A stretch of 64,000 nucleotides of DNA, from assembly GCA_045543655.1 (NCBI GenBank), contig JAZPXN010000085.1:422-64421 (forward strand), given 5' to 3'. This document shows positions 44,606-62,175 of the stretch, one piece after another (within the stretch, counting starts at the first letter, position 1; every line of letters starts with the position of its first letter). This stretch comes from Eubacteriales bacterium (GTDB taxonomy: Bacteria > Bacillota > Clostridia > Oscillospirales > UBA644). The translations under genes were made by a program, and so were the position numbers. The notes under the pieces are model-generated. The model did not search any database. It had not been told where the DNA came from and worked only from the letters and a program-made list of their open reading frames with translations.

Positions 44606-44808
44606 CACAAAATGTATCGTGCGCCTTTGTGAAATTGTACAAAACTCGACGGGAGTTCTTATGAAAAATTACCATACGACGTAACCCGCGTTTGAAAATT
44701 TGAATAAAAACCGACAAAAGCGGAACGATTTTGTAAGGTTTATTGCAATTTGCATCCGTATGTGGTATTATAATATTATCTCTAAATTTATCAACACGCG
44801 AGGAATTT

Positions 44809-45972
44809 ATGAAATACGAACTGATCGCCCCTGCCGCCTTCGGGCTGGAGGCGGTGACTGCCCGGGAATTGCAGAATCTGGGCTTTGAGGATACCCGTAC
44901 CGAAGACGGGCGGGTCTTTTTCTCCGGGGACGAATCCGCCGTGGCCAAGGCAAACCTGTGGTTGCGCACCGCCGCCCGGGTGCAGATCTGTCTGGCCCGG
45001 TTTCGGGCCGTCACCTTCGAAGAGCTGTTTCAAGGGGTAAAGGCGCTTCCCTGGGGGGAGATCCTGCCGGAAAACGCCCGCTTCCCCGTGGACGGAAGGT
45101 CGGTCAAATCCACCCTGTTCAGCATTTCCGACTGTCAGGCCGTTTCGAAGAAGGCCATCGTGGAAAAACTGAAGGAAAAATATCACCGGGACTTTTTCGA
45201 GGAGACGGGGGATCTGTACCGCATCGAGGTGGCCCTTCTGAAGGATACGGTCACCGTCACCCTGGACACCACCGGCGCCGGGCTTCATAAACGGGGCTAC
45301 CGAAGGATTGCCGGAGAGGCTCCGTTAAAAGAGACCATGGCCGCCGCCCTGATCGATCTCACCTTCTGGAAGCCGGGGCGCATTCTGGTGGACCCCATGT
45401 GCGGCACCGGCACCATTCCCATTGAAGCCGCCCTGATTGCGGAAAACCGGGCTCCGGGGCTGACCCGTACCTTCACGGCGGAATCCTGGCCTGCCTTTGC
45501 CAAAGCCTTTGCCGCTGCCCGGGAGGAAGCGAAGGCGCTGATTTGTCCCGCCACCGAGATTACGATCCTCGGCCGGGATATCGACGCAAAGGCCGCCGAC
45601 GTTTCCCAGACCTGCGCCCGCCTTGCGGGGGTGGAGAAGGCCGTCCGGTTCGAGCGGGCGGATATGCGGAAATTTACCTCCGACGAAAAATACGGCTTTA
45701 TCCTTACCAATCCGCCCTACGGCGAGCGGCTGGGGCAGGAGGAAGAGGTGCAGGCCATTTACCGGGATATGGGCAAGGTGTTCCGCTCTCTGGATACCTG
45801 GTCTTATTACGTGCTTACCGCCCATCCGGAGTTCGAGCGTCTCTTCGGCCGGAAGGCGGATAAACGCCGAAAGCTGTTCAACGGCCGGCTCCCCTGCCAG
45901 TATTATCAGTATCTCGGTCCGAAGCCTCCCCGTCCTCCGAGAGGGGAAGAAGGACCCGATTCGGCAAAATGA
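44809..45972 (+). CDS. THUMP-domain 23S rRNA m2G methyltransferase (RlmL/YpsC-like)
   Basis: Motifs FGLE, ANLWLR, LHKRGYR, APLKETMAA, DPMCGTGT and NPPYGERL. Confidence 0.92.
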   Translation: MKYELIAPAAFGLEAVTARELQNLGFEDTRTEDGRVFFSGDESAVAKANLWLRTAARVQICLARFRAVTFEELFQGVKALPWGEILPENARFPVDGRSVKSTLFSISDCQAVSKKAIVEKLKEKYHRDFFEETGDLYRIEVALLKDTVTVTLDTTGAGLHKRGYRRIAGEAPLKETMAAALIDLTFWKPGRILVDPMCGTGTIPIEAALIAENRAPGLTRTFTAESWPAFAKAFAAAREEAKALICPATEITILGRDIDAKAADVSQTCARLAGVEKAVRFERADMRKFTSDEKYGFILTNPPYGERLGQEEEVQAIYRDMGKVFRSLDTWSYYVLTAHPEFERLFGRKADKRRKLFNGRLPCQYYQYLGPKPPRPPRGEEGPDSAK

Positions 45973-45994: not shown

Positions 45995-47155
45995 ATGTTG
46001 AAAAAAATTCTTGCCCTGCTCTTTTGCACCGCACTGCTCTGTTCCTTTGCGGCCTGCGGGGAAACGCCCGTTGCCACCGATTCCGATCTTCCTTCCTCGG
46101 GCAGCACCGCCGGGAATACGGATTCCGCCGTTTCCGGGTCTTCGGATCAGGTCGATGCTTCGGATGAGCCCGTGAAGTACGAAAGCTACGATCCCGAGCT
46201 GGAGCATAAGGTAATGTTTTCGAGAACCGGCGGCGTTTTGTGGGTTCTGGATCTGGACAAGGCCGGCGATGTTTCCGCTCTTTCCAGTCTGGACGACGCC
46301 GTGGTCTGGGAATGGGATCCTGCGGAATGCCCGAACATCAAATATCCTGAGCGGGCCGGCTCTGCCGGGCTGAAATTCCGTCATTCCTCCTATTGGGACA
46401 CCGACGTGATCCTGCTGGCTCAGTCCAACGGCTGGGTGGGCGTCGTGGATTACGAAACGAAGGAAATGCTTTTTGAGCAGCAGCTCAAGGCCGGTCCCCA
46501 TTGTATCGAGCTGATGCCCAACGGCGATCTGGTGGTTGCTTCCTCCGGCAACGGAGACGAGAGCATTGCCGGGCTCTATTATTTCCCCCTCTCCACCGGC
46601 ACGGAGGAAAAGTCCGATTTCTCCCTCTTCAAGGGTGCCCACGGGGTCTGCTACGATCCCGAAAACGAGTGTCTCTGGGCTCTGGGGGACGACGAGGTCC
46701 GTTGCTACGTCGTGCAGAATTACGGCAAAGCCGACGCCAAGCTGAAGTGGATTCAGGGGGAAGGAGATTCGTTGGTGGAGCTGAACGATATCGGCGGCCA
46801 TAACCTGACGCCGGTCTACGGTCAGCCCGGCAAATACTGGGTCACCTCCATCAAGGGGATGTATCTCTTCGATTCTTCTACCGGCAAGCTTTCCAAAACG
46901 TACAAGGACCGCAAAGATCTTTCGTATCCCAACATCAAGGGCATCGCTTATTTTGCCGACGGCACCGCCGTGCAGTCCGGCTACGTGGGCGAGGGCGGGA
47001 ATCCGGATTATTGCTCCACCGCCCTGCGGATCATTACGCTGGAGGAGATCGGCGGCAAGGTAACCTCCGTCCGCCCCGTTACCCGGGAGATTCCCTTTGA
47101 GATAACCGGGGATCAAACCTATAAGGTTCAGGCCTTCAACAAAGATTATCAATAA
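45995..47155 (+). CDS. Beta-propeller-like lipoprotein, array member 1 (DUF6528-like)
   Basis: Lipobox FAAC, an Asp/Ser linker, motifs PHCIELMPNG, HGVCYDP and GHNLTP, ending YKVQAFNKDYQ. Start moved to MLKK after AGGAG. Confidence 0.85.
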   Translation: MLKKILALLFCTALLCSFAACGETPVATDSDLPSSGSTAGNTDSAVSGSSDQVDASDEPVKYESYDPELEHKVMFSRTGGVLWVLDLDKAGDVSALSSLDDAVVWEWDPAECPNIKYPERAGSAGLKFRHSSYWDTDVILLAQSNGWVGVVDYETKEMLFEQQLKAGPHCIELMPNGDLVVASSGNGDESIAGLYYFPLSTGTEEKSDFSLFKGAHGVCYDPENECLWALGDDEVRCYVVQNYGKADAKLKWIQGEGDSLVELNDIGGHNLTPVYGQPGKYWVTSIKGMYLFDSSTGKLSKTYKDRKDLSYPNIKGIAYFADGTAVQSGYVGEGGNPDYCSTALRIITLEEIGGKVTSVRPVTREIPFEITGDQTYKVQAFNKDYQ

Positions 47156-47176
47156 TTTCACCGGGAGGTTTCTCAT

Positions 47177-48301
47177 ATGAAACGGATCCTTGTTCTTCTT
47201 CTCTGCGGTCTTCTGCTCTGCGGCCTTGTTGCCTGCGGCGAAGCGCCCGTCGTTCCCGATTCCGACCTCCCTTCCACCGGAGCCTCCTCCGATGCCGGCA
47301 CTTCGGATTCGGAAAAGCCCGGTGCGGTGCTCTTTGACCCTGACGTTGAGCATAAGTTTCTCGCCTGCGACGTTCTGAACCACAGCATCGTGGTTTACGA
47401 TATGAACGCCTGCGACGAGGTCTACGATAATCTGAAAAACGACCGTTGTATCGTCTGGGAATGGGATGCCGACGACGACGCCACCTGCAAGGGAAAGCCC
47501 ACCTCCGGACTGGACGCCGCCAAGATCCGCTATTCCGATTATTACGAATGCGACGTGGTCATCGTCTGCTCCTCCGAGGGCTGGGCGGGGATTGTGGACT
47601 ACGAGACGAAGACCACCCTGTGGGAGACCGAAATTCCCGGCAGTAATCTCCACTCCGTGGAAATGATGCCCAACGGCGATCTGGTGCTGGTGGGGTCGGG
47701 AGAAGAGGGGAAGGTCTATTACGTCCCCCTGTCCGCCAACGTGACCGAATATACCGCCACCATCGACGCGCCCTCCGGTCACGGCGCCTGCTACGATCCC
47801 GTCAACGATTGGCTGTGGATTCTGGATTACGACGAGATCTTTGCCTGCAAGGTGGAGAATTACGGTGAGAAGGACGTTGCCCTTACCCGGGTCAACGGGA
47901 AATCCTATAATTTCACCACCCGCAACAAGGAGGCCAGCGGTCACGTGCTGACTCCCGTGGCCGGTCAGCCCGGAAAATACTGGATGGCCGCCGAACGCCT
48001 CTGGATTTTCGATAGCAACGAAATGACCCTGACCCGGAGCTACGATTACGCCGGGGTTTACAGCGCAAAAGAATCCGATTGGATGAAGGGCGTGGCTCAT
48101 TTTGAAGACGGCACCATGGTCCAGACCGTTCCCAAGTGGGGCGGCAAGACTCTGACCGACGCCACCTGCGGCGGATTCCGGGTTATCGTCCGGGAGGACG
48201 ACGGCAGCGGAAAGGCGGACGTGAACGTCTACAAGATCGTCTTCCAGCCCCGCAACCGGGAATTTTATAAAGTTACCGCCTTCTCCAAAAATTATCAGTA
48301 A
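47177..48301 (+). CDS. Beta-propeller-like lipoprotein, array member 2
   Basis: Lipobox LVAC, motifs LHSVEMMPNG, HGACYDP and GHVLTP, ending FYKVTAFSKNYQ. Confidence 0.85.
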   Translation: MKRILVLLLCGLLLCGLVACGEAPVVPDSDLPSTGASSDAGTSDSEKPGAVLFDPDVEHKFLACDVLNHSIVVYDMNACDEVYDNLKNDRCIVWEWDADDDATCKGKPTSGLDAAKIRYSDYYECDVVIVCSSEGWAGIVDYETKTTLWETEIPGSNLHSVEMMPNGDLVLVGSGEEGKVYYVPLSANVTEYTATIDAPSGHGACYDPVNDWLWILDYDEIFACKVENYGEKDVALTRVNGKSYNFTTRNKEASGHVLTPVAGQPGKYWMAAERLWIFDSNEMTLTRSYDYAGVYSAKESDWMKGVAHFEDGTMVQTVPKWGGKTLTDATCGGFRVIVREDDGSGKADVNVYKIVFQPRNREFYKVTAFSKNYQ

Positions 48302-48319
48302 TTCCGGGAGGTACGAACG

Positions 48320-49480
48320 ATGAAAAAGCTTTTCGCCTTTCTCCTGTGCGGCGTTATTCTCTGTGGCCTTGCGGCCTGCGGTGAGACGCCCGTCCCCGCC
48401 GATTCCGATTCCTCCGCCTCTTCCGGGGCGGTCTCCGATTCCGCGACCGGGGATTCCGTCGCCTCTTCCGATGAGGCCGACGTCTCCGACACTTCCGATG
48501 AGGAAGAAGTCAAAATTCCGGTTTTCGATCCCGCCGTGGATCATAAGATCATCATGGACGTCTCTGCCCGGGGCATCCTCGTGGTGGATCTGGACGAAAC
48601 CGGGGATCATCCCGAAAATTGGAGCGTGGAAGACGGAATTATTTGGGAATGGAGCACCGACGATCTGACGGAAGGCAAAATGAAGGGCGTTTCGGTCACC
48701 ATGGACTCGGCCCGTCTCAGGTATTCCCCCTATTACGAAAGCGACGTGATCGTATTCTGCGGCTCCGGCGGCTGGGTCGGCGTTGTGGATTACGCCACGA
48801 AGGAGCTGCTTTTTGAGGACAATCCCGGCAAGGGCCCCCATTCTGCGGAGCTGCTGCCCAACGGGGATCTGGTTCTCGCCTGCTCCGGGAATTCCAACAG
48901 CGAGGAGGGGTGCGTTCTTTATTATCCCCTTTCCTCCGGTCTGACGAGAAGCACCTCCACCTACCCCCTCATCTCCGCCCACGGGGTCTGCTACGATCCC
49001 GAGCAGGACGTGATCTGGGCGCTGGGCGGCTATGAGATCGTTGCTCTGAGCGTTTCCGGCAAGGGGACCGAGAAAGCAAAGATCTCTCCCGTCAGCGGCA
49101 TGGGCGTGAAGCTGCCCTCCAATGGCGGACACGAGTTGTCCCCCGCCTACGGACATCCGGGGAAATACTGGGTCTCCGGCGGTAAGGAGGTTTGGGTCTT
49201 CGATTCCGTGAACGGAAGTATCTCCGCCACCGATCTCCAGGCCAAGAAATATACCAACAAGAACGTCAAGGGAATGGCCTATTTTTCCGACGGTACCATG
49301 GTTCAGACCTCTCACGATCAGGGCGGCACCGGCACCTACCGCTCGTCTCTCTTCCGGGTCATGTATCTGGCGGAATCCTCCGGCAAGATCAAGACCTCCG
49401 TGGTCAAGGAGCTGATGATCCCCCACGCCGGCGATTATCAGTCCTATAAGGTCGACGTTTTCTGTAAAGATTATCAGTAA
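48320..49480 (+). CDS. Beta-propeller-like lipoprotein, array member 3
   Basis: Lipobox LAAC, motifs PHSAELLPNG, HGVCYDP and GHELSP, ending YKVDVFCKDYQ. Confidence 0.85.
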   Translation: MKKLFAFLLCGVILCGLAACGETPVPADSDSSASSGAVSDSATGDSVASSDEADVSDTSDEEEVKIPVFDPAVDHKIIMDVSARGILVVDLDETGDHPENWSVEDGIIWEWSTDDLTEGKMKGVSVTMDSARLRYSPYYESDVIVFCGSGGWVGVVDYATKELLFEDNPGKGPHSAELLPNGDLVLACSGNSNSEEGCVLYYPLSSGLTRSTSTYPLISAHGVCYDPEQDVIWALGGYEIVALSVSGKGTEKAKISPVSGMGVKLPSNGGHELSPAYGHPGKYWVSGGKEVWVFDSVNGSISATDLQAKKYTNKNVKGMAYFSDGTMVQTSHDQGGTGTYRSSLFRVMYLAESSGKIKTSVVKELMIPHAGDYQSYKVDVFCKDYQ

Positions 49481-49498
49481 GAAACGGAGTCTTCCGCG

Positions 49499-50641
49499 AT
49501 GAAACGAATTCTTTCCCTTCTTTTGTGCTGCCTTCTGGCCTTTGGGCTTGCGGCCTGCGGCGGGCAGACCGGGCCGGTGGTCTCCGATTACGGAAGCGCT
49601 TCTTCCGCCCCTTCCTCGGTCTCCGATACGGACGACGCTTCTGATGCTTCCGGCAAGACCGATTCTAACGCCGTCTCCGACGCGGTGGTTTTCGACCCCG
49701 GAATCGAGCATCAGATCCTGGTCTGTGATATCATGAACCATTCCGTCGTCCAGCTGGATCTGAACGTCTGCAACGGCGATTACAAGCTTCTTCGGGAGGA
49801 ATCCGCCGTGGTCTGGGAATGGGATGCGGACGAGGACCCCAATTGCCACCTGAAGCCCGGCTCCGGCATCGACGACGCCAAGATCCGGTATTCTCCCTAT
49901 TACGAAAAAGACGTTGTCATCGCTACCTCCTCCGGCGGCAAGGCCTACGTCGTCGATTATGAAAACAAGACCGTTCTCTGGGAAACCTCTCAATCCAACG
50001 GCCCCCACTCCATTGAAATGATGCCCAACGGGGACGTGGTCGTGGCCGGCTCCGGCGGGAGCAATTGGGAAACTGCAGGGAGCCTGGTTTACTACCCCCT
50101 GTCCACCGGCGCCGTGGGGAGAGGGCACGAATACTCCGTTCCTTCCTGTCACGGCGTGCAATGGGACCCCGTGCAGGAGGTGCTGTGGGTTCTGGGGTAT
50201 TACGGCGTGGAGGCGCTGGTCGTCAAGGACGGCAGGCTGTCTCCGGTTTCCGGCCTTTCCGTGGAATTTGACGGAGACGTCGGAGGACACGACCTTGCCC
50301 CCGTTTACGGGCAGCCCGGAAAATATTGGGTCACCGCTCATAAATATCTGTGGCTCTTCGATTCCGTGGAAATGACGCTTGTGAACCGATACGAATATTC
50401 CAACCGTCTCTCCGAAAAGAATCTGAAGGGCGTCGCCTCCTTTGCCGACGGCACTATGGTGCAGTGCGTGGCCAACGTTGGCTCCGATCTGCACGCTACC
50501 TGGTCTACCAAGGCCCTGCGGATTCTGTGGCCGCAAAGGACCGACGGAAAGGTCTCAAAGGTGAAAATGGAGGATTCGACCATTATGTTCTCCGACCGGG
50601 AATTCTATAAGGTCCATACCTTCTGTAAAGATTATCAATAA
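49499..50641 (+). CDS. Beta-propeller-like lipoprotein, array member 4
   Basis: Lipobox LAAC, motifs PHSIEMMPNG, HGVQWDP and GHDLAP, ending FYKVHTFCKDYQ. Confidence 0.85.
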   Translation: MKRILSLLLCCLLAFGLAACGGQTGPVVSDYGSASSAPSSVSDTDDASDASGKTDSNAVSDAVVFDPGIEHQILVCDIMNHSVVQLDLNVCNGDYKLLREESAVVWEWDADEDPNCHLKPGSGIDDAKIRYSPYYEKDVVIATSSGGKAYVVDYENKTVLWETSQSNGPHSIEMMPNGDVVVAGSGGSNWETAGSLVYYPLSTGAVGRGHEYSVPSCHGVQWDPVQEVLWVLGYYGVEALVVKDGRLSPVSGLSVEFDGDVGGHDLAPVYGQPGKYWVTAHKYLWLFDSVEMTLVNRYEYSNRLSEKNLKGVASFADGTMVQCVANVGSDLHATWSTKALRILWPQRTDGKVSKVKMEDSTIMFSDREFYKVHTFCKDYQ

Positions 50642-50680
50642 AACCGTTGCGATACGCTTCGATAAAAGGAGATTTTACTT

Positions 50681-51835
50681 ATGTTGAAAAAGATTCTTTC
50701 CCTTCTGTTATGCTCCCTGATGCTTCTGTCCCTTGCGGCCTGCGGCCCCACGGAAGATCCCTCCGGCACGAATACGGCCGGCTCCGACGCTCCTTCCGGG
50801 ACCGAGGGAGGAAACGACGCTTCCTCCGACGACAAAAAAGAAGGGGATCTGGTGGTTTACGATCCTGACATCGACCATCTGTTTTTGGCCACCGATATCT
50901 GCAACCACAGCATCGTGCTGTACGATCTGGACCGTTGTGAAGACGTTTACGAGAATCTTCTGACCGACAAGTGCGTGGTCTGGGAATGGGACGCCGACGA
51001 AGACCCCAACTGCAAGGGCAACGTGGGCGCCGGCATCGACGCTGCCAAATACCGCTATTCTCCCTATTATGAGAAAGACGTCATTATTGCCTGCTCCTCC
51101 TCCGGCTGGGCAGGGGTCATCGACTATGAAGAAAAGACCGTTCTGTGGGAATATGCCATCGGTTCCGGCCCTCACTCCATTGAGATGATGCCCAACGGCG
51201 ACGTGGTCGTAGCCTGCTCCGGCGGGGAATTCGAGGGCAAGCTGTCCTACGTTCCTCTGTCTGCCGGCGCGACCAAGCCCTCTCACGAAATTTTCTGCCC
51301 CTCCGGTCACGGCGTATCCTACGATCCCGTCAACGAATGTCTGTGGGTCCTGGAATTTGAACAGGTCTTCGCCGTCAACGTGCAGGGCTACGGCACCGCC
51401 AAGGCCAAGCTGGTTCGCCTCAACGGCACCGGATACGATTTCGGCGCGTCCAAGGAAGATACCTCCGGTCACGTTCTGTCCCCCAAATACGGGGAGCCCG
51501 GAAAATATTGGGTTGCCGGCGGGAAGCTGTGGATTTTCGATACTGCCACCGAAAAACTGTCGAAGGCCTATCCCCACAGCAGCGCCTATAACCACAAATC
51601 CGCCAACTGGATGAAGGGCGTTGCCTATTTTGAAGACGGCACCATGATCCAGACCGTGCCGGGGTCCGGCGGTGACACCACTTACGACTGGTCCTGCGGC
51701 GGCTTCCGTATTACGGTTCTGGAGGAATCCACCGGCAAGGTGAAAAAGGCCGTAGCCAAGACCCACGAGATCTATTTTGAAAGAACCGACCGTGAATTTT
51801 ACAAGGTCCATCCCTTCAACAAGAACTATCAGTGA
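50681..51835 (+). CDS. Beta-propeller-like lipoprotein, array member 5
   Basis: Lipobox LAAC, motifs PHSIEMMPNG, HGVSYDP and GHVLSP, ending FYKVHPFNKNYQ. Confidence 0.85.
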   Translation: MLKKILSLLLCSLMLLSLAACGPTEDPSGTNTAGSDAPSGTEGGNDASSDDKKEGDLVVYDPDIDHLFLATDICNHSIVLYDLDRCEDVYENLLTDKCVVWEWDADEDPNCKGNVGAGIDAAKYRYSPYYEKDVIIACSSSGWAGVIDYEEKTVLWEYAIGSGPHSIEMMPNGDVVVACSGGEFEGKLSYVPLSAGATKPSHEIFCPSGHGVSYDPVNECLWVLEFEQVFAVNVQGYGTAKAKLVRLNGTGYDFGASKEDTSGHVLSPKYGEPGKYWVAGGKLWIFDTATEKLSKAYPHSSAYNHKSANWMKGVAYFEDGTMIQTVPGSGGDTTYDWSCGGFRITVLEESTGKVKKAVAKTHEIYFERTDREFYKVHPFNKNYQ

Positions 51836-51853
51836 TTCACGGAAAGGTAAGTC

Positions 51854-53275
51854 ATGAAAAAGCGTATTTTTGCGGGGTTTCTCGCTCTTTTGCTCCTTCT
51901 TTCCTTTGCCGCCTGCGGAGATCCCGCCGAACCTTCCGACGGTTCGGGGAGTGATTCGGTTTCCGGCGTTTTCACCGATGCGTCTGCAGATCCGTCCTCT
52001 GACGCCGTGACCGACGGGACCTCCGACGGGTCTTCCGTGGAAGCGTCCGATTCCGCTACCGATTCCGCTACCGATTCCGCTTCTTCCGCCTCCGGATCGG
52101 TCACCGATTCCGACGAAGCGACCGACGAGACCTACGAGTCCGACGACGAGACCGTCCCCGACGGCCCCACCTACGGGGATTACGACGACGCGCCTCCGGA
52201 GGGCGGTGAGGATACCGACGTGTATCTGCCCGGATTTGCTCCCTCCCTGACCCCCTCCACCTCCGACGGGACGGGCTCCGGGCTTCCTACCGAGGACGAG
52301 CAGGATCCCCCTGCGGCGAACGACACCGTCGTAGGCAATACCCTCTCCGGTCTTATGGCCATCACCGACCAGCGCAACGGACAGATTGCCGTGGTGGATC
52401 TGGCCAACCCGGATATCACCTCCGCTTCCGCTCTGAAATGGCTCTGGTCTCCCACCATGCACGGGGACGTGACCGTGAACAGCACGGGGAAGCATCTGGA
52501 CGACGTCGTGGTCCGGGAGGTTCACGCCGGGCTTTTTGACGGCACCGTGGTGGGCGTTTCCAATTCCGGCGGCTTTGTCGCCGTGGTGGAATATCCCTCC
52601 GGAAAATGCCTTTTTAACGTCAGCATTCCGGGTTACGGTCCTCACGATATCGAGATTCTCCCCAACGGACTCGTCGTTGTGGCCTGCTCCGGCAACGGGA
52701 ACGAGGACAGAGCCTGTCTGCGGGTTTATCGGGCAAGATCCAAGAACGATACCGTCTGCGCCTCGGTGTTCCTTTCCAGTGCCCACGGGGTATTGTGGGA
52801 TCCCGACCGGCAATGGGTCTGGGCCTTGGGGAACGTCAGTCTGAACGCCTATACCATCAGCGGAAGCCCCTCCACCACCCCCAAGATCTCTGCCGTCAAC
52901 GGCGTGGGTGCCGTTGGATTTTCCGGTGGACATTGCCTCTCTCCCGTCTACGGGAATCCCGACCGGCTTTGGATTTCTGCGGGATCGAAGGTCTACCAGG
53001 TGGATAAAGATACGGGAAAGCTTTATACCGATTACGTGGGGGCTGAGCGGATCAACACCTCCGCCATCAAGAGCGTCAACTCCTTTGCAAACGGTACCAC
53101 CGTCTGGACCCGTGCCGACAGCGCAAACGCCACCGCGACCCACAATACCGACGTGGTCAATATTCTTTATTACAACGTTTACGCCTCCGGGAAGAGGGTC
53201 AGGGCCTATATGAACGTTAAATTCTCCAATCGGGATTTTTACAAGGTGAGACCCTTCGTTACCGCCTATCAATAA
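51854..53275 (+). CDS. Beta-propeller-like lipoprotein, array member 6 (long acidic stalk)
   Basis: Lipobox FAAC, a ~140-aa Asp/Ser/Thr linker, motifs PHDIEILPNG, HGVLWDP and GHCLSP, ending FYKVRPFVTAYQ. Confidence 0.85.
   Translation: MKKRIFAGFLALLLLLSFAACGDPAEPSDGSGSDSVSGVFTDASADPSSDAVTDGTSDGSSVEASDSATDSATDSASSASGSVTDSDEATDETYESDDETVPDGPTYGDYDDAPPEGGEDTDVYLPGFAPSLTPSTSDGTGSGLPTEDEQDPPAANDTVVGNTLSGLMAITDQRNGQIAVVDLANPDITSASALKWLWSPTMHGDVTVNSTGKHLDDVVVREVHAGLFDGTVVGVSNSGGFVAVVEYPSGKCLFNVSIPGYGPHDIEILPNGLVVVACSGNGNEDRACLRVYRARSKNDTVCASVFLSSAHGVLWDPDRQWVWALGNVSLNAYTISGSPSTTPKISAVNGVGAVGFSGGHCLSPVYGNPDRLWISAGSKVYQVDKDTGKLYTDYVGAERINTSAIKSVNSFANGTTVWTRADSANATATHNTDVVNILYYNVYASGKRVRAYMNVKFSNRDFYKVRPFVTAYQ
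52047..52081 (+). repeat. 12-bp tandem repeat (about 3 copies) in the linker of member 6
   Basis: CCGATTCCGCTA twice plus CCGATTCCGCT, encoding DSATDSATDSA. Confidence 0.85.
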
Positions 53276-53288
53276 ACAGAAAGCGTGT

Positions 53289-54215
53289 ATGCCGATGAAA
53301 CCGAAATGGATTGCTCTGACCGATCAGCGCAACGACGAGATCGTCGTCCTGGATCTCTCCTCCAAGGATTTTGCGGATCCGGTCTGGCGCTGGTCTCCCA
53401 CGGGACGGGGGGATCTTTCCTATCCGGGCGAGAAGAACCGCCGTCTTGATTCCTTTACCCTGCGCAAGGTGAACGCCGGCCTTTTTCACGGCCCCGTGGC
53501 AGGAGTGACCAAATCCGGCGGCATGGTCGCCGTGGTGGAGTATCCCTCCGGGAAATGTCTGTTTAACGTAGACGCTTCCGGCTACGGCCCCCACGATATC
53601 GATATATTGCCCAACGGGTGCGTTGCGGTGGCCTGCTCCGGAAACGGAAACGCCGCCATGGCGGAGCTTCGGGTCTATCGGGCCGGAACCAAGGATGAGG
53701 ACGCCCGGGTCTCGGTTCCTCTCCCCGGCGTGCACGGGGTTCTGTGGGACCCCTCCCTGGAGATTCTCTGGTGCCTGAGTTATTCGGAATTGCGTGCCTA
53801 TCGCATTTCCCTTTCCTTTGAGGGAATGCCCATCTTATCCCGGGTCAAGGATCGGGGCGTGGGCGGCCTTCGCTCCGGCCACTGTCTGTCTCCGGTTTAC
53901 GGAGCCCCCGATCGGCTTTGGATTACCGACGCCGACGGCGTGTATCAGTATTCCAAGTCTATGGATACCTTCTGTGACGGGTATCCCGGAAAATCGAAGG
54001 TCTGTATCCCCAGCGTCAAGAGCATTAACAGCTATGCCGACGGGACTCTGGTCATGACCGTGGCTGACGGCAAGCGCAACGCTACCGCGCCTCACAACAC
54101 CGATACGGTGCGCATCCTCGTCCCCGATAAGACGGGGGAATACGTTTCCCGGGATCTGAAGTTCGAGAACCGTGATTTTTATAAGGTACGTATCTTCGAT
54201 CCGTCGTATCAATGA
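53289..54215 (+). CDS. Array member 7, propeller domain without signal peptide
   Basis: Starts directly at WIALTDQRN. Motifs PHDIDILPNG, HGVLWDP and GHCLSP, ending FYKVRIFDPSYQ. Confidence 0.82.
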   Translation: MPMKPKWIALTDQRNDEIVVLDLSSKDFADPVWRWSPTGRGDLSYPGEKNRRLDSFTLRKVNAGLFHGPVAGVTKSGGMVAVVEYPSGKCLFNVDASGYGPHDIDILPNGCVAVACSGNGNAAMAELRVYRAGTKDEDARVSVPLPGVHGVLWDPSLEILWCLSYSELRAYRISLSFEGMPILSRVKDRGVGGLRSGHCLSPVYGAPDRLWITDADGVYQYSKSMDTFCDGYPGKSKVCIPSVKSINSYADGTLVMTVADGKRNATAPHNTDTVRILVPDKTGEYVSRDLKFENRDFYKVRIFDPSYQ

Positions 54216-54270
54216 TCCTTCCGGGAATTCCGGAAAATGTGAAAAATATTCGAAATAATCCAAAATCCTC

Positions 54271-54299
54271 TTGCTTTTTTACTGCAGATGGTGTATAAT
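54271..54299 (+). promoter_or_regulatory. Sigma-A promoter of tRNA-Ser
   Basis: TTGCTT-17 bp-TATAAT. Confidence 0.7.
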
Positions 54300-54334
54300 A
54301 GTCCACGGTGACTTTCCGAAGCCGCCGTGAATAT

Positions 54335-54426
54335 GGAGAGATGGCTGAGCTGGTCTAAGGCGCACGACTGGAAATCGTGTAAGGGCTAATAACTCTTCGG
54401 GGGTTCGAATCCCCCTCTCTCCGCCA
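54335..54426 (+). tRNA. tRNA-Ser(GGA)
   Basis: Acceptor stem GGAGAGA/TCTCTCC, anticodon arm CACGA-CTGGAAA-TCGTG, a long variable arm, GGTTCGAATCC T-arm, discriminator G and encoded CCA. Confidence 0.97.
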
Positions 54427-54428
54427 TG

Positions 54429-54458
54429 AAGCACCTGCAGTTTTGCGGGTGCTTTTTG
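54429..54458 (+). terminator. Terminator after tRNA-Ser
   Basis: AAGCACCTGCA...TGCGGGTGCTT followed by TTT. Confidence 0.7.
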
Positions 54459-54493
54459 TTATACCGAAAATTGATTTTAAGGTGTTTTTTGCT

Positions 54494-55453
54494 ATGAAAA
54501 AAATTGCGCTTCTTTTGGCTCTGCTGTTCTCTCTGTCCCTTCTTGCCGGGTGTATGCCTATGCGTATGGAGCCGGCGCCGGTGGAGCCTCAGCGGATTCT
54601 GATTACCGATCAGCTTCACGAGGAGCTGCGGATCTACGATCTGCGCAACGAGGATCTTTCCGAGCCGGAATGGTCCTGGGGCTGCGACGAGGAAACCTTC
54701 CGCAGCGTGGACGGGGCGAAGTATCGCTTCGACCCCATTTCCGGGGTCAACGTCATTGCCTTCTGCTCCTCCGGAGGCTTTGCCGGCATCGTCACCTATC
54801 CCGTGGGAGAGCTGATTTCTTACGTTTCCTATGCGGGAAGCAATCCCCATTCGGTGGAAATTTTGCCCGACGGCGCGCTGGCGGTGGCATCGTCTACCGG
54901 GAACACGGTGCGCATTTATCCCCGGATTCCCTACGGCGACGCGGAGCTGACCGAATATACCCAGGTGGAGCTTTCCAGCGCTCACGGCGTTCTGTGGGAT
55001 CCTGCCGAGGAGGTTCTGTGGGCGTTGGGGATGAACGATCTGGTTGCTTACGAGGTGACGGAGGATCACGAAATGATCGAGCGGGACGATCTGTCCATTC
55101 ATCTGCCCTACGGCGGCGGACACGATCTTCAGCCGGTCTTCGGCACGGAGGATCTGTTCTGGGTTACCGGGAACAGCAACGTGATGCAGGTCAACAAGAC
55201 CACCGGCGAGGTTTCGATCCGTTATCCCGGCTGGGGGACGGTCAGCGCCCTTACGGCGGTGAAGGGGATCGGCAATTTTGACGACGGAACCCTGCTGATG
55301 GCCCAGCAGAACGGTACTTATAAAGAATGGAACACCAATACCGTTACTCTGGGCTATTACGATGCGAAGGATAACCTGTATCATCTGGAGCAGCGGGTGA
55401 TCCCCGACGTGGCCTTTTACAAAGTACGGGTGTTTGAGAAAAGTTACCGATAA
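54494..55453 (+). CDS. Beta-propeller-like lipoprotein, array member 8 (almost no linker)
   Basis: Lipobox LAGC, motifs PHSVEILPDG, HGVLWDP and GHDLQP, ending FYKVRVFEKSYR. Start at MKKIAL after TAAGGTG. Confidence 0.85.
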   Translation: MKKIALLLALLFSLSLLAGCMPMRMEPAPVEPQRILITDQLHEELRIYDLRNEDLSEPEWSWGCDEETFRSVDGAKYRFDPISGVNVIAFCSSGGFAGIVTYPVGELISYVSYAGSNPHSVEILPDGALAVASSTGNTVRIYPRIPYGDAELTEYTQVELSSAHGVLWDPAEEVLWALGMNDLVAYEVTEDHEMIERDDLSIHLPYGGGHDLQPVFGTEDLFWVTGNSNVMQVNKTTGEVSIRYPGWGTVSALTAVKGIGNFDDGTLLMAQQNGTYKEWNTNTVTLGYYDAKDNLYHLEQRVIPDVAFYKVRVFEKSYR

Positions 55454-55498
55454 TGCTTTCTCTTCACGATAAAAAACCAAAGAAAGAGGTACTACGTT

Positions 55499-56578
55499 AT
55501 GAAACGAATTCTGTCTCTTCTGCTTCTTCTCGTTATGGTTGCGGGGCTGGTAGCTTGCGGGGAAACGGCGGGGAACACCGATTCCTCCGGGACCGATTCC
55601 GCAGTCCCCGGCACCGGCTCTGTGGGCGGAAGCTCCTCCGACGCCGTAAATTCCGACGACGCCGAGGAAGAATGGAAGCCCGGCACCGAGCCCAATCTGG
55701 TCATGGCCTGCGATCAGTGGAACCACCGTATCGTGGTCTACGATATGGCGCTCCTCGATGAGAAGGGCAGCCTGGATAAGGCGGAGGTCCTGGAGATCCA
55801 CGATGCTCACACCGCCGGCCTGAAATATCGTGAAGACACGGTCTACGGGGACGTGATCATCTATTCCGATACCCATATCGTTTCTTATCCCGAAGGGGAA
55901 AAGATCTGGAGCGCTCCCGGAAAGGCCGGCTCCAATCCTCACTCTATTGAGATCCTTCCCAGCGGGAATATCGTTACCGCTTCCTCCACCGACGGGCAGG
56001 TTTCCATCTTCAACACCTACGCCAATCTGAAGGAGGGCGCGGCGCTGAAGGTTTCTTATTATTCGCTGCCCGGCGCTCACGGGGTTCTGTGGGATCCCGA
56101 AAACGAATTGGTCTGGGCCATCGGCGACTACGATCTGGTGGCCTATCAGGTACGGGAAAAGGACGGCGTGGAGATCCTTTCGAAGGTCAACGGCATCGGC
56201 GCCAAGCTGCCCACCACCGGCGGCCACGATCTCTCTGCAGATCTGACCGACACCAACTTCCTGTGGTGCACCACCAACAGCGGCGTTTATCATTTCGATA
56301 AGGAAGCCAACGAGTTTATCACCAAATTCAATCAGTACGCCAAGCTGAGCAAGAAGTCGGTCAAAGGCTTCGGCAATAACCGCAACGGCAATTTCTTCTT
56401 CTGCTTCCCCAACCACGGCCCCGGCCGGGAATGGGAAAAGGAAGGGATCGCCGATTGGTGTACCGACACCATTTATTACGCTTATTGGAAGAGCGAAAAT
56501 TTCCTGTACGTACAGCCCTGCGTATCGGAAAAGTCCGCCTTCTATAAGGTCCGCGTTCTCTGCGGTCAATATCAATAA
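55499..56578 (+). CDS. Beta-propeller-like lipoprotein, array member 9
   Basis: Lipobox LVAC, motifs PHSIEILPSG, HGVLWDP and GHDLSA, ending FYKVRVLCGQYQ. Confidence 0.85.
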   Translation: MKRILSLLLLLVMVAGLVACGETAGNTDSSGTDSAVPGTGSVGGSSSDAVNSDDAEEEWKPGTEPNLVMACDQWNHRIVVYDMALLDEKGSLDKAEVLEIHDAHTAGLKYREDTVYGDVIIYSDTHIVSYPEGEKIWSAPGKAGSNPHSIEILPSGNIVTASSTDGQVSIFNTYANLKEGAALKVSYYSLPGAHGVLWDPENELVWAIGDYDLVAYQVREKDGVEILSKVNGIGAKLPTTGGHDLSADLTDTNFLWCTTNSGVYHFDKEANEFITKFNQYAKLSKKSVKGFGNNRNGNFFFCFPNHGPGREWEKEGIADWCTDTIYYAYWKSENFLYVQPCVSEKSAFYKVRVLCGQYQ

Positions 56579-56599
56579 CTTTTTAAAGGAGAAACCGCT

Positions 56600-57691
56600 A
56601 TGAAAAAGCTGCTTGCGATTTTTTTGATCCTGACCCTTACCCTTGCCCTCGTAGCCTGCGGCGGAGACCCTGCCGAAAATCCCACCGATTCCGGATCTGC
56701 CGGTGACAGCGTCGTTTCCGACACCGACAAGACCCCCGCCTCCGACGATGAGGAAAGTGAAGATTCCGAAAAGGAATGGGAGCCTTTGGAGGTTGCCGCA
56801 AACAAATTCATCGTATCCGATTACCTCAACCGTCGTCTGGTGGTTTACGATCTGGATCTCGTTCCCGAAGAGGGCGATCTGTCTTTGGGCGAAATCTGGG
56901 CCCTTGAAGGGGTCTATTCCGCTTCGGTCAAATACCGGGAAAATACCAAATACGGTACCGTGGTTCTCACCACCCATAACGGTCCCGTCATCACCGATTT
57001 CGAGACCAAGGAAGAGATCTGGTGCGGCGGCGCCGGCAAGGCGGGCTCCAACCCCCACTCCATTGAAATTCTGCCCAGCGGCAATATCGTTACCGCCTCC
57101 TCCACCGACGGTCTGGTCCGTATTTTCAATACCTACGATATGGTGACGAACGGCGCTCCCATTAAGCATAAGAGCTACGAGCTGCCCAGCGCTCACGGCG
57201 TTCTGTGGGATCCGGAAAGCGAATTGCTTTGGGCTCTTGGGGAAACGGAGCTGATTGCGTACGTGGTGAAGGAGCAGGACGGCATGGAGGTTCTCCAGAA
57301 GGTCAACGGCATCGGTGCCAAGCTGCCTACCTACGGCGGTCACGATCTTTCCGCCGATCTGATGGACTCCAATTTCCTGTGGTGCACCACCAACAAAGGC
57401 GTCTATCATTTTGATAAGGAAGCCAACGAATTCGACGAAAAATACAATCAGTACGCCAAACTGAACAAGGGTGCCGTCAAGGGCTTCGGCAACAACAAGA
57501 ACGGCAATTTCATCTTCTCTCAGGCCAAGGGTGACGACGACGAGACCCTGCCCACCGGCGCTCCCGGCTGGAGCACCGACGTGATCACCTTCGGCTTCTG
57601 GAAGAGCGAAAACTTCCTGTACCTCCGGGAAATTCAGTGCAAAGACTGCGCCTTCTACAAGGCCCGTGTGCTCCACGGTGATTATCAATAA
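56600..57691 (+). CDS. Beta-propeller-like lipoprotein, array member 10
   Basis: Lipobox LVAC, motifs PHSIEILPSG, HGVLWDP and GHDLSA, ending FYKARVLHGDYQ. Confidence 0.85.
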   Translation: MKKLLAIFLILTLTLALVACGGDPAENPTDSGSAGDSVVSDTDKTPASDDEESEDSEKEWEPLEVAANKFIVSDYLNRRLVVYDLDLVPEEGDLSLGEIWALEGVYSASVKYRENTKYGTVVLTTHNGPVITDFETKEEIWCGGAGKAGSNPHSIEILPSGNIVTASSTDGLVRIFNTYDMVTNGAPIKHKSYELPSAHGVLWDPESELLWALGETELIAYVVKEQDGMEVLQKVNGIGAKLPTYGGHDLSADLMDSNFLWCTTNKGVYHFDKEANEFDEKYNQYAKLNKGAVKGFGNNKNGNFIFSQAKGDDDETLPTGAPGWSTDVITFGFWKSENFLYLREIQCKDCAFYKARVLHGDYQ

Positions 57692-57708
57692 TTCTCTGTG
57701 AGGACCTT

Positions 57709-58794
57709 ATGATGAAACGAATCGTATCGCTTCTTCTTCTTTCCACCCTTATTCTTGGAGCTCTGGTCGGATGCGTTCCTCAGAGCACTCCCGTTTCCGA
57801 TTCCTCCGCCGGAAACCAATCCGCCGTCTCCGATTCCGCCTCCGTCGATTCCTCCGATTCCGCCGACAAGCCGGAGAAGCGCTCCGCTCAGGAGATTCTG
57901 GAGGCCTCCGAGCATCTGGTGGGGCTTTGCGATCAGGGAAACAGCCGCATTATCGTCAGCGATCTTGCGGTGGAGGATTGGGAAAACGACAACGCCGTGG
58001 TCTGGGAATACAAGGACGATTCCTGCCGGTCCGTGGCCGGCATCAAGCTGCGCTGGAGCGAGGTTTTCCAGGAGCTGGTGGTAGCCTATTGCTGGCACGG
58101 CGGGGCGGCTATCGTTTCCTATGAAGACAAAAAAGAGTTGTACAGCACCAACCTCACCGGTGTCAATCCCCACTCGGTGGAGATTTTGCCCGACGGTCAT
58201 CTGATTGTGGCCTCGTCCACCGACAACGACGTGCGGCTTTACGATGCGGAGGATCAGAAAAACGGCAAGGGACGCCATTGCCAGAAGATTGACTTTCCCA
58301 ACGCTCACGGGGTTCTGTGGGATCCGGAATACGAGGTGGTCTGGCTGTGGGGAACCGATCAGCTGTCCGCCTATTCCGTGGTGGAAAAGGACGGCAAGCC
58401 CTGGCTTGCGCCTATGGGCGGCATGACCTACAAGGCTCCGAAATCCGGCGCTCACGATCTCTGCCCCGTATACGGAAATAAGGATCAGATGTTCATTACC
58501 TGCGGCAACGGTATTATGATCTTCGATAAATCCACCGAGGAATTTTCCTTCGCCTACCCCGGCGGCTCGGTGGGACGGAAGCATTCCTACGCCCCCGGTA
58601 CCGGCAATTTTGAGCAGGACGGCGTGTTCTTCTTCACCTCCATCAAGGACGATACCATGGTTCTGAACGATTGGTGCACCAATATCGTTTTCGTTTACGT
58701 GCCGAACGCCGACGGCGTGGGGAAGCTGCTCCGCCGCAAGGCTCCCAACGACGCCTATTATAAGGTCCGCACCTGGTCTCCCGATTATCAATAA
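57709..58794 (+). CDS. Beta-propeller-like lipoprotein, array member 11
   Basis: Lipobox LVGC, motifs PHSVEILPDG, HGVLWDP and AHDLCP, ending YYKVRTWSPDYQ. Confidence 0.85.
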   Translation: MMKRIVSLLLLSTLILGALVGCVPQSTPVSDSSAGNQSAVSDSASVDSSDSADKPEKRSAQEILEASEHLVGLCDQGNSRIIVSDLAVEDWENDNAVVWEYKDDSCRSVAGIKLRWSEVFQELVVAYCWHGGAAIVSYEDKKELYSTNLTGVNPHSVEILPDGHLIVASSTDNDVRLYDAEDQKNGKGRHCQKIDFPNAHGVLWDPEYEVVWLWGTDQLSAYSVVEKDGKPWLAPMGGMTYKAPKSGAHDLCPVYGNKDQMFITCGNGIMIFDKSTEEFSFAYPGGSVGRKHSYAPGTGNFEQDGVFFFTSIKDDTMVLNDWCTNIVFVYVPNADGVGKLLRRKAPNDAYYKVRTWSPDYQ

Positions 58795-58802
58795 CTGAAA
58801 AC

Positions 58803-58879
58803 GATCTCCGGATCCGGGTTCTTTGCCGATCCGGAGATTCTTTTTCGTACTTGACAAGTCGTCCGGGATATGGTATACT
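58803..58879 (+). promoter_or_regulatory. Terminator followed by an internal promoter within the array
   Basis: Hairpin ATCTCCGGATC...GATCCGGAGAT with a T run, then TTGACA-17 bp-TATACT (58851-58879) with an extended -10 TG. Confidence 0.72.
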
Positions 58880-58915
58880 GACCCTATGAAACCAATTGTT
58901 ACGGAGGATTACCTC

Positions 58916-60028
58916 ATGCGGCGAATTTTCTCTGTCTTGCTTCTTTTTGCGTTGATTTTCGGGCTTTTTTCCGGCTGTGAGTCCGACAATCCCCCTTCTT
59001 CCGACGTCCCGGGGGCGCAGACCGGATCGGTTTCCGATTCTGCGGAAGCGTCTTCCGATGAGGTGTCCGACGGTACGGAAGGAGGCGACGCTTCCGATTC
59101 CAAGCCGGAGAAGCGCTCCGCTCAGGAGATTCTGGAGGCCTCCGAGCATCTGGTCGGGCTTTGCGACCAGGGCAACCGTCGCATTATCGTCAGCGATCTT
59201 GCGGTGGAGGATTGGGAGAACGACAACGCCGTGGTCTGGGAGTACAAGGACGATTCCTGCCGGTCCGTGGCCGGCATCAAGCTGCGCTGGAGCGAGGTTT
59301 TCCAGGAGCTGGTGGTGGCTTATTGCTGGGGCGGCGGGGCGGCCGTCGTTTCTTACGAGGATAGGGTGGAGCTGTACCGTACCACCCGCACCGGAGAGAA
59401 TCCCCATTCCGTGGAGATTTTGCCCGACGGTCATCTGATCGTGGCGTCGTCCACCGACAACGACGTGCGCCTTTACGATGCCGAAGCGCTGGCCTCCGGT
59501 GACCAAAAGCATTGTCAGAGGCTGGAATTCCCCAACGCCCACGGGGTTTTGTGGGATCCGGAATACGAGGTGGTCTGGCTTTGGGGAACCGATCAGCTGG
59601 GAGCCTATTCCCTGATTGAAAAGGACGGAAAGCCCTGGCTTGCGCCTATGAGCGGAATGCGCTATACCGCGCCCAAGAGCGCCGCTCACGATCTTTGCCC
59701 CGTCTACGGAAACAAGGATCAGCTCTTTATTACCTGCGCCAAAGGGATCATGATCTTCGATAAGCAGACCGAAAAATTTTCCTTTTCTTATCCCGGCGGG
59801 TCGGTAGGGCAGAAGCATCCCTACGCCCCCGGTACCGGCAATTTTGAGCAGGACGGCGTGTTCTTCTTCACCTCCATCACCAAGGAGACCATGGTGGTCA
59901 ACGATTACAGCACCAATATCGTTTTCGTATACGTGCCGAAGGCCGACGGGGTGGGGAAGCTGCTCCGCCGCAAGGCCTCCAACGACGTTTATTATAAAGT
60001 CCGCACCTGGTCCCCGGATTATCAGTAA
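58916..60028 (+). CDS. Beta-propeller-like lipoprotein, array member 12
   Basis: Start MRRIFS after GGAGG, lipobox FSGC, domain nearly identical to member 11, ending YYKVRTWSPDYQ. Confidence 0.85.
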   Translation: MRRIFSVLLLFALIFGLFSGCESDNPPSSDVPGAQTGSVSDSAEASSDEVSDGTEGGDASDSKPEKRSAQEILEASEHLVGLCDQGNRRIIVSDLAVEDWENDNAVVWEYKDDSCRSVAGIKLRWSEVFQELVVAYCWGGGAAVVSYEDRVELYRTTRTGENPHSVEILPDGHLIVASSTDNDVRLYDAEALASGDQKHCQRLEFPNAHGVLWDPEYEVVWLWGTDQLGAYSLIEKDGKPWLAPMSGMRYTAPKSAAHDLCPVYGNKDQLFITCAKGIMIFDKQTEKFSFSYPGGSVGQKHPYAPGTGNFEQDGVFFFTSITKETMVVNDYSTNIVFVYVPKADGVGKLLRRKASNDVYYKVRTWSPDYQ

Positions 60029-60050
60029 CGCATTTTGAAAGGAGAATTCC

Positions 60051-61151
60051 GTGAAAAAGAATTTTGCTCTGTTGCTGGTGCTTCTTCTTTGCGCAGGACT
60101 TCTGACCGCTTGCGGTCCGGGAGCGGATCCGGAGAAAAATACGAATGGCGATCCCGACCCGGATCGGGCCTCGGATTCTATCTCCGTCACCGATTCCGAG
60201 GGGTCGAAGCATTCTTCGCTTTCCGTTTCCATGCCGCCGGCCTACACGAAGCCGTCCACCGATTCCTCGGCGCCGACCAAGCTGGAAAAGGGGAAATATC
60301 TGGTGGGACTCACCGACCAGAAGAACAGCCGCCTCATCGTCTGCGACCTTGCCGTGGAAAACTGGGCCAACGACCGGGCCGTCGTCTGGGAATACGGGGG
60401 AATCTCCGCCGGCGGCATCAAATTCCGGGAGAACGATTATTGGGGCGGGGAGGTGGTCTTGTATTGCGGCGGCAAAAACGCAGGGATTATTTCCTACGCC
60501 TCCAAAAAGCTGCTCCTTTCCGTGGAAACCGTTCCGGGGAATCCCCACTCGGTGGAGCTTTTGCCCAACGGCGTTTTCATCGTGGTGGGTTCTACCGGAA
60601 ACGAGACCTACGTATACGGCGCCGGCAAGACCGAGCCCTCCTTCACCTTGCCCCTTACCAAAGGCCACGGGGCGCTGTGGGACCCGAAATACGGGGTTTT
60701 GTGGCTGGAGGGGGATAATCTCCTGCAGGCTTACAAGGTCACGGGAACGGCGGAAAATCCCGCTCTGGAGAAGGTTAAGGGCATGACCTACCATCCCAAC
60801 ACCTCTCTGCACGATATGGCGCCGGTCTACGGCAATCCCGACGCCCTCCTCCTTACGGGGGCAAACGGCGTCGTGCTGTTTGACAAGACCACCGGACAGG
60901 CTTCCCATAATTATCCTGCCGGCGGCTATCTCAAGGCTCAGACCTACGTTCCCGGCGTGGGCAATTATCCCGGGGATTCGGTCTACGTTTTCACCACCAT
61001 CCGGGAGGATACCCTCACCTATAAGGAATGGGGAAGCGACCGCGTCGAGATCTTCGTTTCCTTTGGCGACGGCCGGGGCAAGGTGCTGACCCGGCAGGCG
61101 AAGGGGGATGCGTATTATAAAGCGCGGGCCTGGATCTCCGATTACCAATAA
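60051..61151 (+). CDS. Beta-propeller-like lipoprotein, array member 13
   Basis: GTG start after AAGGAG, lipobox LTAC, motifs PHSVELLPNG, HGALWDP and LHDMAP, ending YYKARAWISDYQ. Confidence 0.85.
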   Translation: MKKNFALLLVLLLCAGLLTACGPGADPEKNTNGDPDPDRASDSISVTDSEGSKHSSLSVSMPPAYTKPSTDSSAPTKLEKGKYLVGLTDQKNSRLIVCDLAVENWANDRAVVWEYGGISAGGIKFRENDYWGGEVVLYCGGKNAGIISYASKKLLLSVETVPGNPHSVELLPNGVFIVVGSTGNETYVYGAGKTEPSFTLPLTKGHGALWDPKYGVLWLEGDNLLQAYKVTGTAENPALEKVKGMTYHPNTSLHDMAPVYGNPDALLLTGANGVVLFDKTTGQASHNYPAGGYLKAQTYVPGVGNYPGDSVYVFTTIREDTLTYKEWGSDRVEIFVSFGDGRGKVLTRQAKGDAYYKARAWISDYQ

Positions 61152-61221: not shown

Positions 61222-61274
61222 TTAGCATATTTATTCAGCAATTGCTTGACAATTCCGCCGGAATGTGTTATTCT
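61222..61274 (+). promoter_or_regulatory. Promoter with a candidate ARG box
   Basis: AGCATATTTATTCA (reverse complement TGAATAAATATGCT) lies just upstream of TTGACA-17 bp-TATTCT (61246-61274). Confidence 0.55.
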
Positions 61275-61316
61275 ATTAAAACCAAACTTACCATCAAACA
61301 GAAAGAGGTATCCGTC

Positions 61317-62081: not shown

Positions 62082-62175
62082 TCCGCCGAAAAAATTCTTC
62101 TGAAACGAAAACCGGGGGGTGCCCGCGCATCCCTCGGTTTTTTCGCCGTATTTTCATCGGAAAGGAATCTGATCC

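Follow-up and report, generated by a model that had tools for sequence, protein, structure and literature searches.

Introduction

PAPS-independent aryl sulfotransferases (ASSTs), six-bladed beta-propellers with three histidines (PMC13426309; 10.64898/2026.10.08.757636), are by analogy the nearest counterpart of DUF6528 (PF20138), the family to which we assign a tandem array of 13 genes at positions 45995-61151 of the window, that is, of the whole 64,000-nucleotide stretch of contig JAZPXN010000085.1 from a Eubacteriales bacterium analysed here. Six-bladed lactonases place their metal ligands at the starts of inner strands, with a spacing similar to that of the DUF6528 centre (PMC13578688), peptidyl-alpha-hydroxyglycine lyase (PAL) combines a metal and a Tyr/Arg dyad with a six-bladed fold (PMC10303134), and the polysaccharide lyases PL24, PL25 and PL42 have seven blades, an arginine neutraliser and a His/Tyr/basic centre on the front face (PMC8377490). 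A literature search, beyond whose reach most subscription papers lay, found no paper on DUF6528, PF20138 or BACCAC_01654, and none on polysaccharide utilisation loci combining teichoic acid, phosphodiester and rhamnosidase.

The array is real and conserved, and its family is uncharacterised. It belongs to a genus-wide expansion of DUF6528 whose members are predicted to be six-bladed propellers with a lipid anchor at the cell surface. What makes it of interest is less the tandem array itself than a predicted active-site layout that no characterised family shares, together with a testable class of substrates. An active site of three histidines, two lysines and one tyrosine in a six-bladed propeller, for which no characterised family offers a match, would represent a new enzyme class, and with 13 natural variants, soluble domains of 300 residues and a clear set of residues to mutate, the question is directly testable.

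Predicted fold and conserved centre

The original prediction, an earlier reading of the same DNA made without database searches, had proposed beta-propeller-like proteins resembling the DUF6528 family, with named shared motifs, subgroups and variable loops, and each of these points has held up. Twelve of the 13 array proteins lie above the Pfam gathering cut-off for DUF6528, and gene 2, although sub-threshold (17.4 vs 23.5 bits), aligns over its full length with all invariant residues. The nearest Atlas clusters are all DUF6528 (score 0.97); once these are set aside nothing exceeds 0.83, and a cluster bearing an ASST at 0.82 is a lead only. NCBIfam gave no match for the two window proteins searched, and PHROGs none for four. 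Among the array proteins, pairwise domain identity ranges from 27 to 85%, with a median of 33% (78 pairs).

AlphaFold models of gene 8 (pLDDT 96.1) and of an actinobacterial homologue (95.5) are six-bladed propellers of four-stranded blades, in which the last strand closes blade 1. In fold searches YWTD propellers score highest (Z 23-24, rmsd ~3, identity 8-12%), followed by 3no2 (BACCAC_01654; Z 20.4), NHL domains, lactonases (Z 18-20) and PAL (3fw0, Z 17.8). The E. coli ASST 3elq matches end to end and colinearly (Z 18.6, rmsd 3.7, 261 residues aligned), and Cpz4 with Z 17.8 over 251 residues. Foldseek placed seven-bladed proteins at the top of its list, which was uninformative. The clue to function comes from the conserved polar residues and not from the fold alone.

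According to DSSP, these residues, His97, His142, His188, Lys235 and the pair Tyr287-Lys288 (gene 8 numbering), begin the inner strands, which line the channel, of blades 3, 4, 5, 6 and 1, respectively. The three histidines, Tyr287 and Lys288 are kept in 28/28 copies of this genome and Lys235 in 21/28; across 238 non-redundant domains the three histidines, the tyrosine and Lys288 stand at 97-99% and Lys235 at 90%, and in distant domains the centre residues are kept in 69-75 of 76. No conserved arginine was found on the His face in either the 238 or the 76 domains, and Trp257 (21/28 copies) is the one conserved aromatic. Around this constant centre the loops on the His face vary in length (7-20, 10-20, 7-14, 5-11 and 4-10 residues in 12 array members), while on the opposite face 8 of 11 loops vary by at most 2 residues. 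We infer that the histidines, the tyrosine and the lysines form one pocket at the mouth of the channel, which looks like an active site rather than the centre of a decoy, and that a constant polar centre with a variable rim would correspond to one catalytic chemistry acting on several substrates. The paralogues may differ in specificity.

Comparison with known propeller families

DUF6528 appears to share with ASSTs (E. coli 3elq, Cpz4 9kf6 and the D. hafniense ASST) the six blades, a full-length colinear match, histidines in three successive blades, and a tyrosine with a basic residue on the closing strand, but it has His followed by Gly where ASSTs have His-x-Asn, lacks a conserved blade-4 arginine, possesses the additional Lys235 and is far more compact. 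The colinear blade register was the best of six shifts in 6/6 ASST comparisons and ranked 8-25 of 720 with two sets and 133-149 with a third, the anchors having been picked by eye and without an outgroup control. Profile comparison with hhalign gave matches of 6-38%, out of register, and its pairing of His97 with the catalytic histidine of ASSTs was dismissed as reflecting one generic blade. ASST membership was rejected, given that the array proteins have no Pfam match to PF05935 or PF14269 at E 0.1 and that the blade-4 His-x-Asn and Arg are absent.

Other propellers resemble the family in part. SMP-30/gluconolactonase, Drp35, PON1 and CJ1041C have six blades with catalytic ligands at strand starts ~45 residues apart, but their Glu/Asn/Asn/Asp calcium ligands are replaced by His/His/His/Lys/Tyr in DUF6528, so membership of the SGL, PON or DFPase lactonases was rejected; the ring also closes differently. 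In PAL, an NHL lyase that likewise has six blades, three zinc-binding histidines sit on alternating blades; DUF6528 has them on three adjacent blades and has no conserved arginine on that face, which excludes membership. PL24, PL25 and PL42 share a front-face His/Tyr/basic centre and a glycan context, but membership was rejected because DUF6528 is six-bladed and not seven-bladed. Beta-propeller phytases carry a calcium-binding acidic ring; the array proteins have no Pfam match to them, and neither they nor propeller lyases occur among the fold matches listed. YWTD propellers (LRP, nidogen) and 3no2 share the closure (Z 20-24), but identity to DUF6528 is 8-13%, YWTD domains have proteins as their ligands and are not known to carry a polar ring of this kind, and 3no2 is itself an uncharacterised protein.

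Gene neighbourhoods

DUF6528 is tied to glycan-uptake loci in three phyla. In Bacteroidota-type SusC/SusD loci, SusD lies one to two genes upstream of DUF6528 in 7/69 context classes, three of them with Metallophos within two genes three with GH20 in a member, and others with GH106, NagX or a sulfatase. In Paenibacillaceae, DUF6528 comes after genes for ABC sugar-binding proteins, and there are fusions with Metallophos or with a xylose-isomerase-like barrel. Genes for PhoD, GDPD, NAGPA and phospholipase C adjoin other copies. Among 37 long homologues, 8 carry a Metallophos fusion; SLH, choline-binding, dockerin and NPCBM modules are also found. In counts based on home-made gene calls and seed searches, with one locus per class, phosphoesterases account for 7/306 genes within three places of DUF6528 vs 0/275 farther out (p 0.016), and glycosidases for 11/306 vs 2/275 (p 0.023). 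In the present genome, a glycosidase gene of the same orientation (GH30, 31, 2, 116, 20) lies immediately beside 5/10 DUF6528 blocks, and 2/10 have Metallophos within two genes; a looser count, with a glycosidase within three genes in 7/10 blocks, was set aside as the families had been chosen afterwards and two cases were loose. Genome-wide there are 24 Metallophos, 8 GDPD, 7 GH20 and 1 sulfatase matches.

Several features of these surroundings deserve mention in their own right. The 24 calcineurin-like phosphoesterase matches fall in a 2.6-Mb genome, several of them in frames of 1400-2500 aa or in tandem triplets (contigs C55, C29, C35, C56, C61), and one lies at the start of the window (C85:1368-2066). 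Protein clusters of this genome comprise 69 AraC-like regulators, 23 Gfo/Idh/MocA dehydrogenases, 12 xylose-isomerase-like barrels and 8 sugar-binding lipoproteins. Elsewhere, DUF6528 is the last gene of an operon that also encodes two xylose-isomerase-like barrels and ThuA (L028, L030, L035:5340-8900), and a Paenibacillus protein fuses it to such a barrel (L048:6831-8726); judging by this company, a link to the breakdown of glycosides by oxidation and elimination is possible. In one SusC/D locus, a Tat-like protein of 623 aa without a Pfam or NCBIfam match has two DUF6528 genes on one side and a Metallophos gene on the other (L203:8967-10838), and precomputed Pfam assignments show DUF6528 fused to peptidoglycan-binding domains in P0353 and P0354.

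Proposed function

Given this conserved centre and its company, DUF6528 is likely to be an enzyme of glycan catabolism of some kind, and the glycan-modifying enzymes that the original prediction had listed among its options are now the leading one. More tentatively, we favour surface enzymes that act on phosphate groups of glycans, probably of the wall polymers of other microbes. The hexosaminidases, rhamnosidases and phosphoesterases near DUF6528, together with the scarcity of sulfatases, suggest that the target is phosphate carried by the wall or capsule polymers of microbes. Here we speculate that the lipid-anchored propellers might cut phosphodiester bridges or strip phosphate decorations on complex sugar polymers, most plausibly those in the walls and capsules of other gut microbes. 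The lysines would bind the anionic group, and the histidines might serve as nucleophile and acid-base, accepting the group that is transferred as they do in aryl sulfotransferases, or might hold a transition metal where lactonases bind calcium. The loops of each paralogue could select a different polymer, so that polymer diversity would reward many variants, and hexosaminidases, rhamnosidases and metallophosphoesterases might then finish the breakdown. GlpQ, the known exo-enzyme, is stopped by substitutions on teichoic acids, and additional enzymes can therefore be expected; the job proposed for DUF6528, by inference only, resembles that of the Bacillus subtilis teichoicases GlpQ and PhoD, which cut phosphodiester wall polymers (PMC7086022). 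The folds of GlpQ and PhoD are unrelated to DUF6528, though PhoD and GDPD genes adjoin some of its genes. A bolder version, which we consider doubtful, is that these are new histidine-centred phosphodiesterases working through a covalent phospho-histidine, compact distant cousins of ASSTs acting on phosphate in place of sulfate, and that this ruminant-gut genus displays up to 28 variants in order to take apart the capsules and the variously decorated wall teichoic acids that dead gut bacteria leave behind. If DUF6528 does cut phosphate-bearing bacterial wall polymers, it would name a missing step in the recycling of gut microbial biomass and provide tools for the analysis of teichoic acids and capsules.

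A number of observations weigh against the involvement of phosphate or against catalysis altogether. The best fold matches are non-catalytic propellers, no relative has a solved structure, and a PDB sequence search gave generic WD40, NHL and sensor blades only. Lys235 is absent from subfamily E (genes 11-13) and is replaced by proline in 6/28 copies. Among the 58 context classes with at least three neighbours, a phosphoesterase occurs in 8 and a glycosidase in 9, and neither lies beside the 13-gene array or the block in the purine operon, where four DUF6528 genes stand among purine genes. Most actinobacterial copies are solitary and their neighbourhoods reflect lineage synteny only, while the long Metallophos fusions look, by eye, like one or a few events. 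Copy number in 12 genomes goes with Metallophos (rho 0.85) and GH20 (rho 0.93), but it also tracks estimated genome size (0.87), and the 12 genomes are kin and not independent. Sulfatase (2 loci) and xylose-isomerase-like TIM barrels (8/58 classes, one fusion) are neighbours as well, and the slot behind susD is also usual for non-catalytic glycan-binding proteins.

Alternative explanations

That the array encodes non-catalytic surface proteins binding glycans or metals with differing specificities, akin to surface glycan-binding proteins, is unlikely, even though genes stand directly behind susD (in Bacteroidota loci) or an ABC binding-protein gene, the top folds are ligand-binding YWTD propellers, sensor-kinase propellers give weak profile matches, the genome has few ABC binding proteins (a cluster of 8) and one DUF6528 domain is fused to a lectin-like propeller. 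Five polar residues invariant across phyla amid variable loops, a single conserved aromatic (Trp257), a centre retained in leaderless copies, and the binding or anchoring modules of their own that many homologues possess (those listed above) all speak against it. Somewhat less likely is a new family of polysaccharide-lyase type, in which His and Tyr would act as acid and base and Lys would neutralise a uronate, or in which elimination would take place on 3-keto glycosides. The His/Tyr/basic front-face centres that define PL24, PL25 and PL42 (PMC8377490) would suit it, as would rhamnosidase neighbours, the TIM-barrel, ThuA and Gfo neighbours with one fusion, and the 23 Gfo-like and 12 TIM-barrel paralogues of the genome; those lyases, however, are seven-bladed with an arginine of which the His face here has no conserved equivalent, and the scanned neighbours include no pectin or uronate genes. 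A histidine-metal hydrolase of small esters or lactones, such as a lactonase or deacylase for sugar catabolism, would explain why the ring positions are those of the SGL/PON calcium ligands, and it agrees with the fold scores to those lactonases, with dehydrogenase neighbours and with the existence of leaderless copies; it is nevertheless rather improbable, as the Glu/Asn/Asn/Asp ligands are missing, small lactones poorly explain 25 surface copies and two lysines suggest an anion.

A compact ASST-like enzyme, transferring or releasing sulfate by way of a sulfo-histidine, has a slim chance: the six-bladed, three-histidine architecture, the full-length colinear match to 3elq and Cpz4, the best colinear register in all six comparisons and a sulfatase neighbour in 2 loci are in its favour, but the profiles match out of register, His-x-Asn and the blade-4 arginine are missing, the register test had no unrelated-propeller control and the genome holds 1 sulfatase. 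The original prediction had also considered decoys, and tandemly arranged genes for surface proteins whose loops vary, with genes 9-10 more divergent between strains, could recall antigenic variation in evasion of phages or immunity. This is very improbable: dN/dS is well below 1, indicating purifying selection, five old subfamilies hold their order across species, the polar centre is invariant, the alleles of genes 3, 4, 10 and 11 are 98-100% identical and the array contains no switch or recombinase. An assembly artefact, which might be feared in a metagenome-assembled genome of 98 contigs and had been raised as a mis-assembly of strain variants, has practically no probability, since 10/12 junctions are bridged in contigs from three other runs, relatives show the same order and the copies are 27-85% identical.

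Organisation and transcription of the array

As originally described, the 13 co-oriented, intact open reading frames (308-473 aa, forward strand, no frameshifts) are preceded by an RlmL-like THUMP methyltransferase gene and followed by an amino-acid ABC operon, and 12 of the proteins have a lipobox, gene 7 being the exception. The features are as follows.

44806..45972, +, RlmL-like THUMP RNA methyltransferase, upstream anchor; same neighbour in 9/10 relatives' arrays, the tenth ending at a contig edge
45995..47155, +, gene 1, DUF6528 lipoprotein, subfamily A
47177..48301, +, gene 2, subfamily A, below the Pfam cut-off; invariant residues all present
48320..49480, +, gene 3, subfamily A
49499..50641, +, gene 4, subfamily A
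50681..51835, +, gene 5, subfamily A
51854..53275, +, gene 6, subfamily B, acidic stalk of 128 aa
53289..54215, +, gene 7, subfamily B, no signal peptide, predicted cytoplasmic, centre intact
54335..54426, +, tRNA-Ser(GGA), splits the array; same place in relatives
54428..54455, +, terminator-like hairpin (12 pairs, T tail) 3' of the tRNA
54494..55453, +, gene 8, subfamily C, almost no stalk; modelled from 54560 on
54848..55423, +, predicted active-site ring of gene 8, numbered from 54560: His97 (54848), His142 (54983), His188 (55121), Lys235 (55262), Tyr287-Lys288 (55418-55423)
55499..56578, +, gene 9, subfamily D
56600..57691, +, gene 10, subfamily D
57709..58794, +, gene 11, subfamily E, Pro in place of Lys235
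58851..58879, +, sigma-70-like promoter before gene 12, 11/12 matches, extended -10
58916..60028, +, gene 12, subfamily E, youngest duplicate, domain 85% identical to gene 11
60051..61151, +, gene 13, subfamily E
61242..63706, +, genes of an amino-acid ABC transporter, anchor on the downstream side

The acidic stalks measure 28-47 aa in 10 of the 12 lipoproteins, with genes 6 (128 aa) and 8 (3 aa) as outliers, so display height is not the main variable and the proposal that the domains are generally displayed at different heights is not upheld. A read-through from gene 6 into gene 7 was rejected, as a 13-bp gap and a change of frame separate them. Nor is the array uninterrupted, as had been assumed: the internal tRNA-Ser(GGA), the terminator and the promoter before gene 12 divide it into two gene blocks. 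From the sequence signals it probably comprises three transcription units, with the methyltransferase gene probably co-transcribed with genes 1-7 across a 22-bp gap. An Rfam scan matched the tRNA only. In the RNA run X20, which had no silent control, near-identical contigs of 203-406 nt lie on genes 1, 3, 4, 5, 6, 8 and 10, and 58323-61327 is uncovered. Upstream, on the reverse strand, the window contains an ordinary glycogen operon (glgB, two glgC/D, glgA; 38665-44487) that is syntenic in relatives.

DUF6528 blocks recurrently lie behind or inside housekeeping units, namely the RNA methyltransferase (window 44806-45972), a tRNA, a purine operon and rpsB-tsf (L105; L102:5416-8643), a placement that hints at constitutive expression. 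In relatives, 3-5 copies precede the tRNA-Ser (window 54335-54455) and 0-7 follow it, indicating that the copies of the second block are acquired or lost together.

Assembly, spread and evolution

The bridging contigs come from three other DNA runs, each of a different study, as judged on 32 of 754 pieces; the junctions from the tRNA to gene 8 and from gene 8 to gene 9 are not among the matches listed. Runs holding array DNA are sheep or other animal gut metagenomes, and the named close relatives are Clostridia genomes from the ruminant gut. GC content of the array matches that of the remaining window.

A selected, lineage-specific expansion, as originally proposed, is borne out. This genome has 28 DUF6528 copies in 10 blocks, of which the array holds 13, making it the largest exported-protein family of the genome; a lipobox is present in 23/28 copies by pattern and in 2 with GTG starts read by eye. 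Each of the 11 other genomes of the genus holds 3-24 copies, mostly at the same locus, while outside the genus DUF6528 occurs in 1/13 genomes of the other genera of the same taxonomic family and in 0/16 of other families. The arrays of relatives include the tRNA in 8/10 and reach the ABC genes in 4/10. Elsewhere the family, with 1,012 representatives at E 1e-10, mostly has one to a few copies per genome and is patchy (6/251 Paenibacillaceae); within limited scoring, it was not found beyond seed genomes in 400 sampled Bacillota and 150 sampled Actinomycetota, and no relative was seen among the viral contigs searched.

The checks originally suggested included a tree with homologues, copy number in relatives and site-wise dN/dS; the first two were carried out, and selection was gauged pairwise. 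A quick tree of 112 domains, without bootstrap, separates five old subfamilies (genes 1-5, 6-7, 8, 9-10 and 11-13), whose counterparts in other species keep the same order with species-specific duplicates added. Pairwise dN/dS is 0.07-0.33 for 14 array pairs vs 0.05-0.07 for 3 methyltransferase pairs, with several dS values near saturation, indicating selection that is purifying but relaxed. The array grew as an ordinary birth-and-death expansion, usual for such families, and its duplications may have taken place behind housekeeping promoters.

Leaderless copies with an intact centre recur beside exported copies of the same subfamily (window 53289-54215; C84:86422-87354 and C90:12841-13782 in this genome; L017, L020), and the relative G002 has three in a row. 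In the same genus, divergent DUF6528 domains also end very large proteins of up to 3600 aa that lie beside small pilin- or fibre-like genes (L013, L014:10277-19000, L015:3442-6933).

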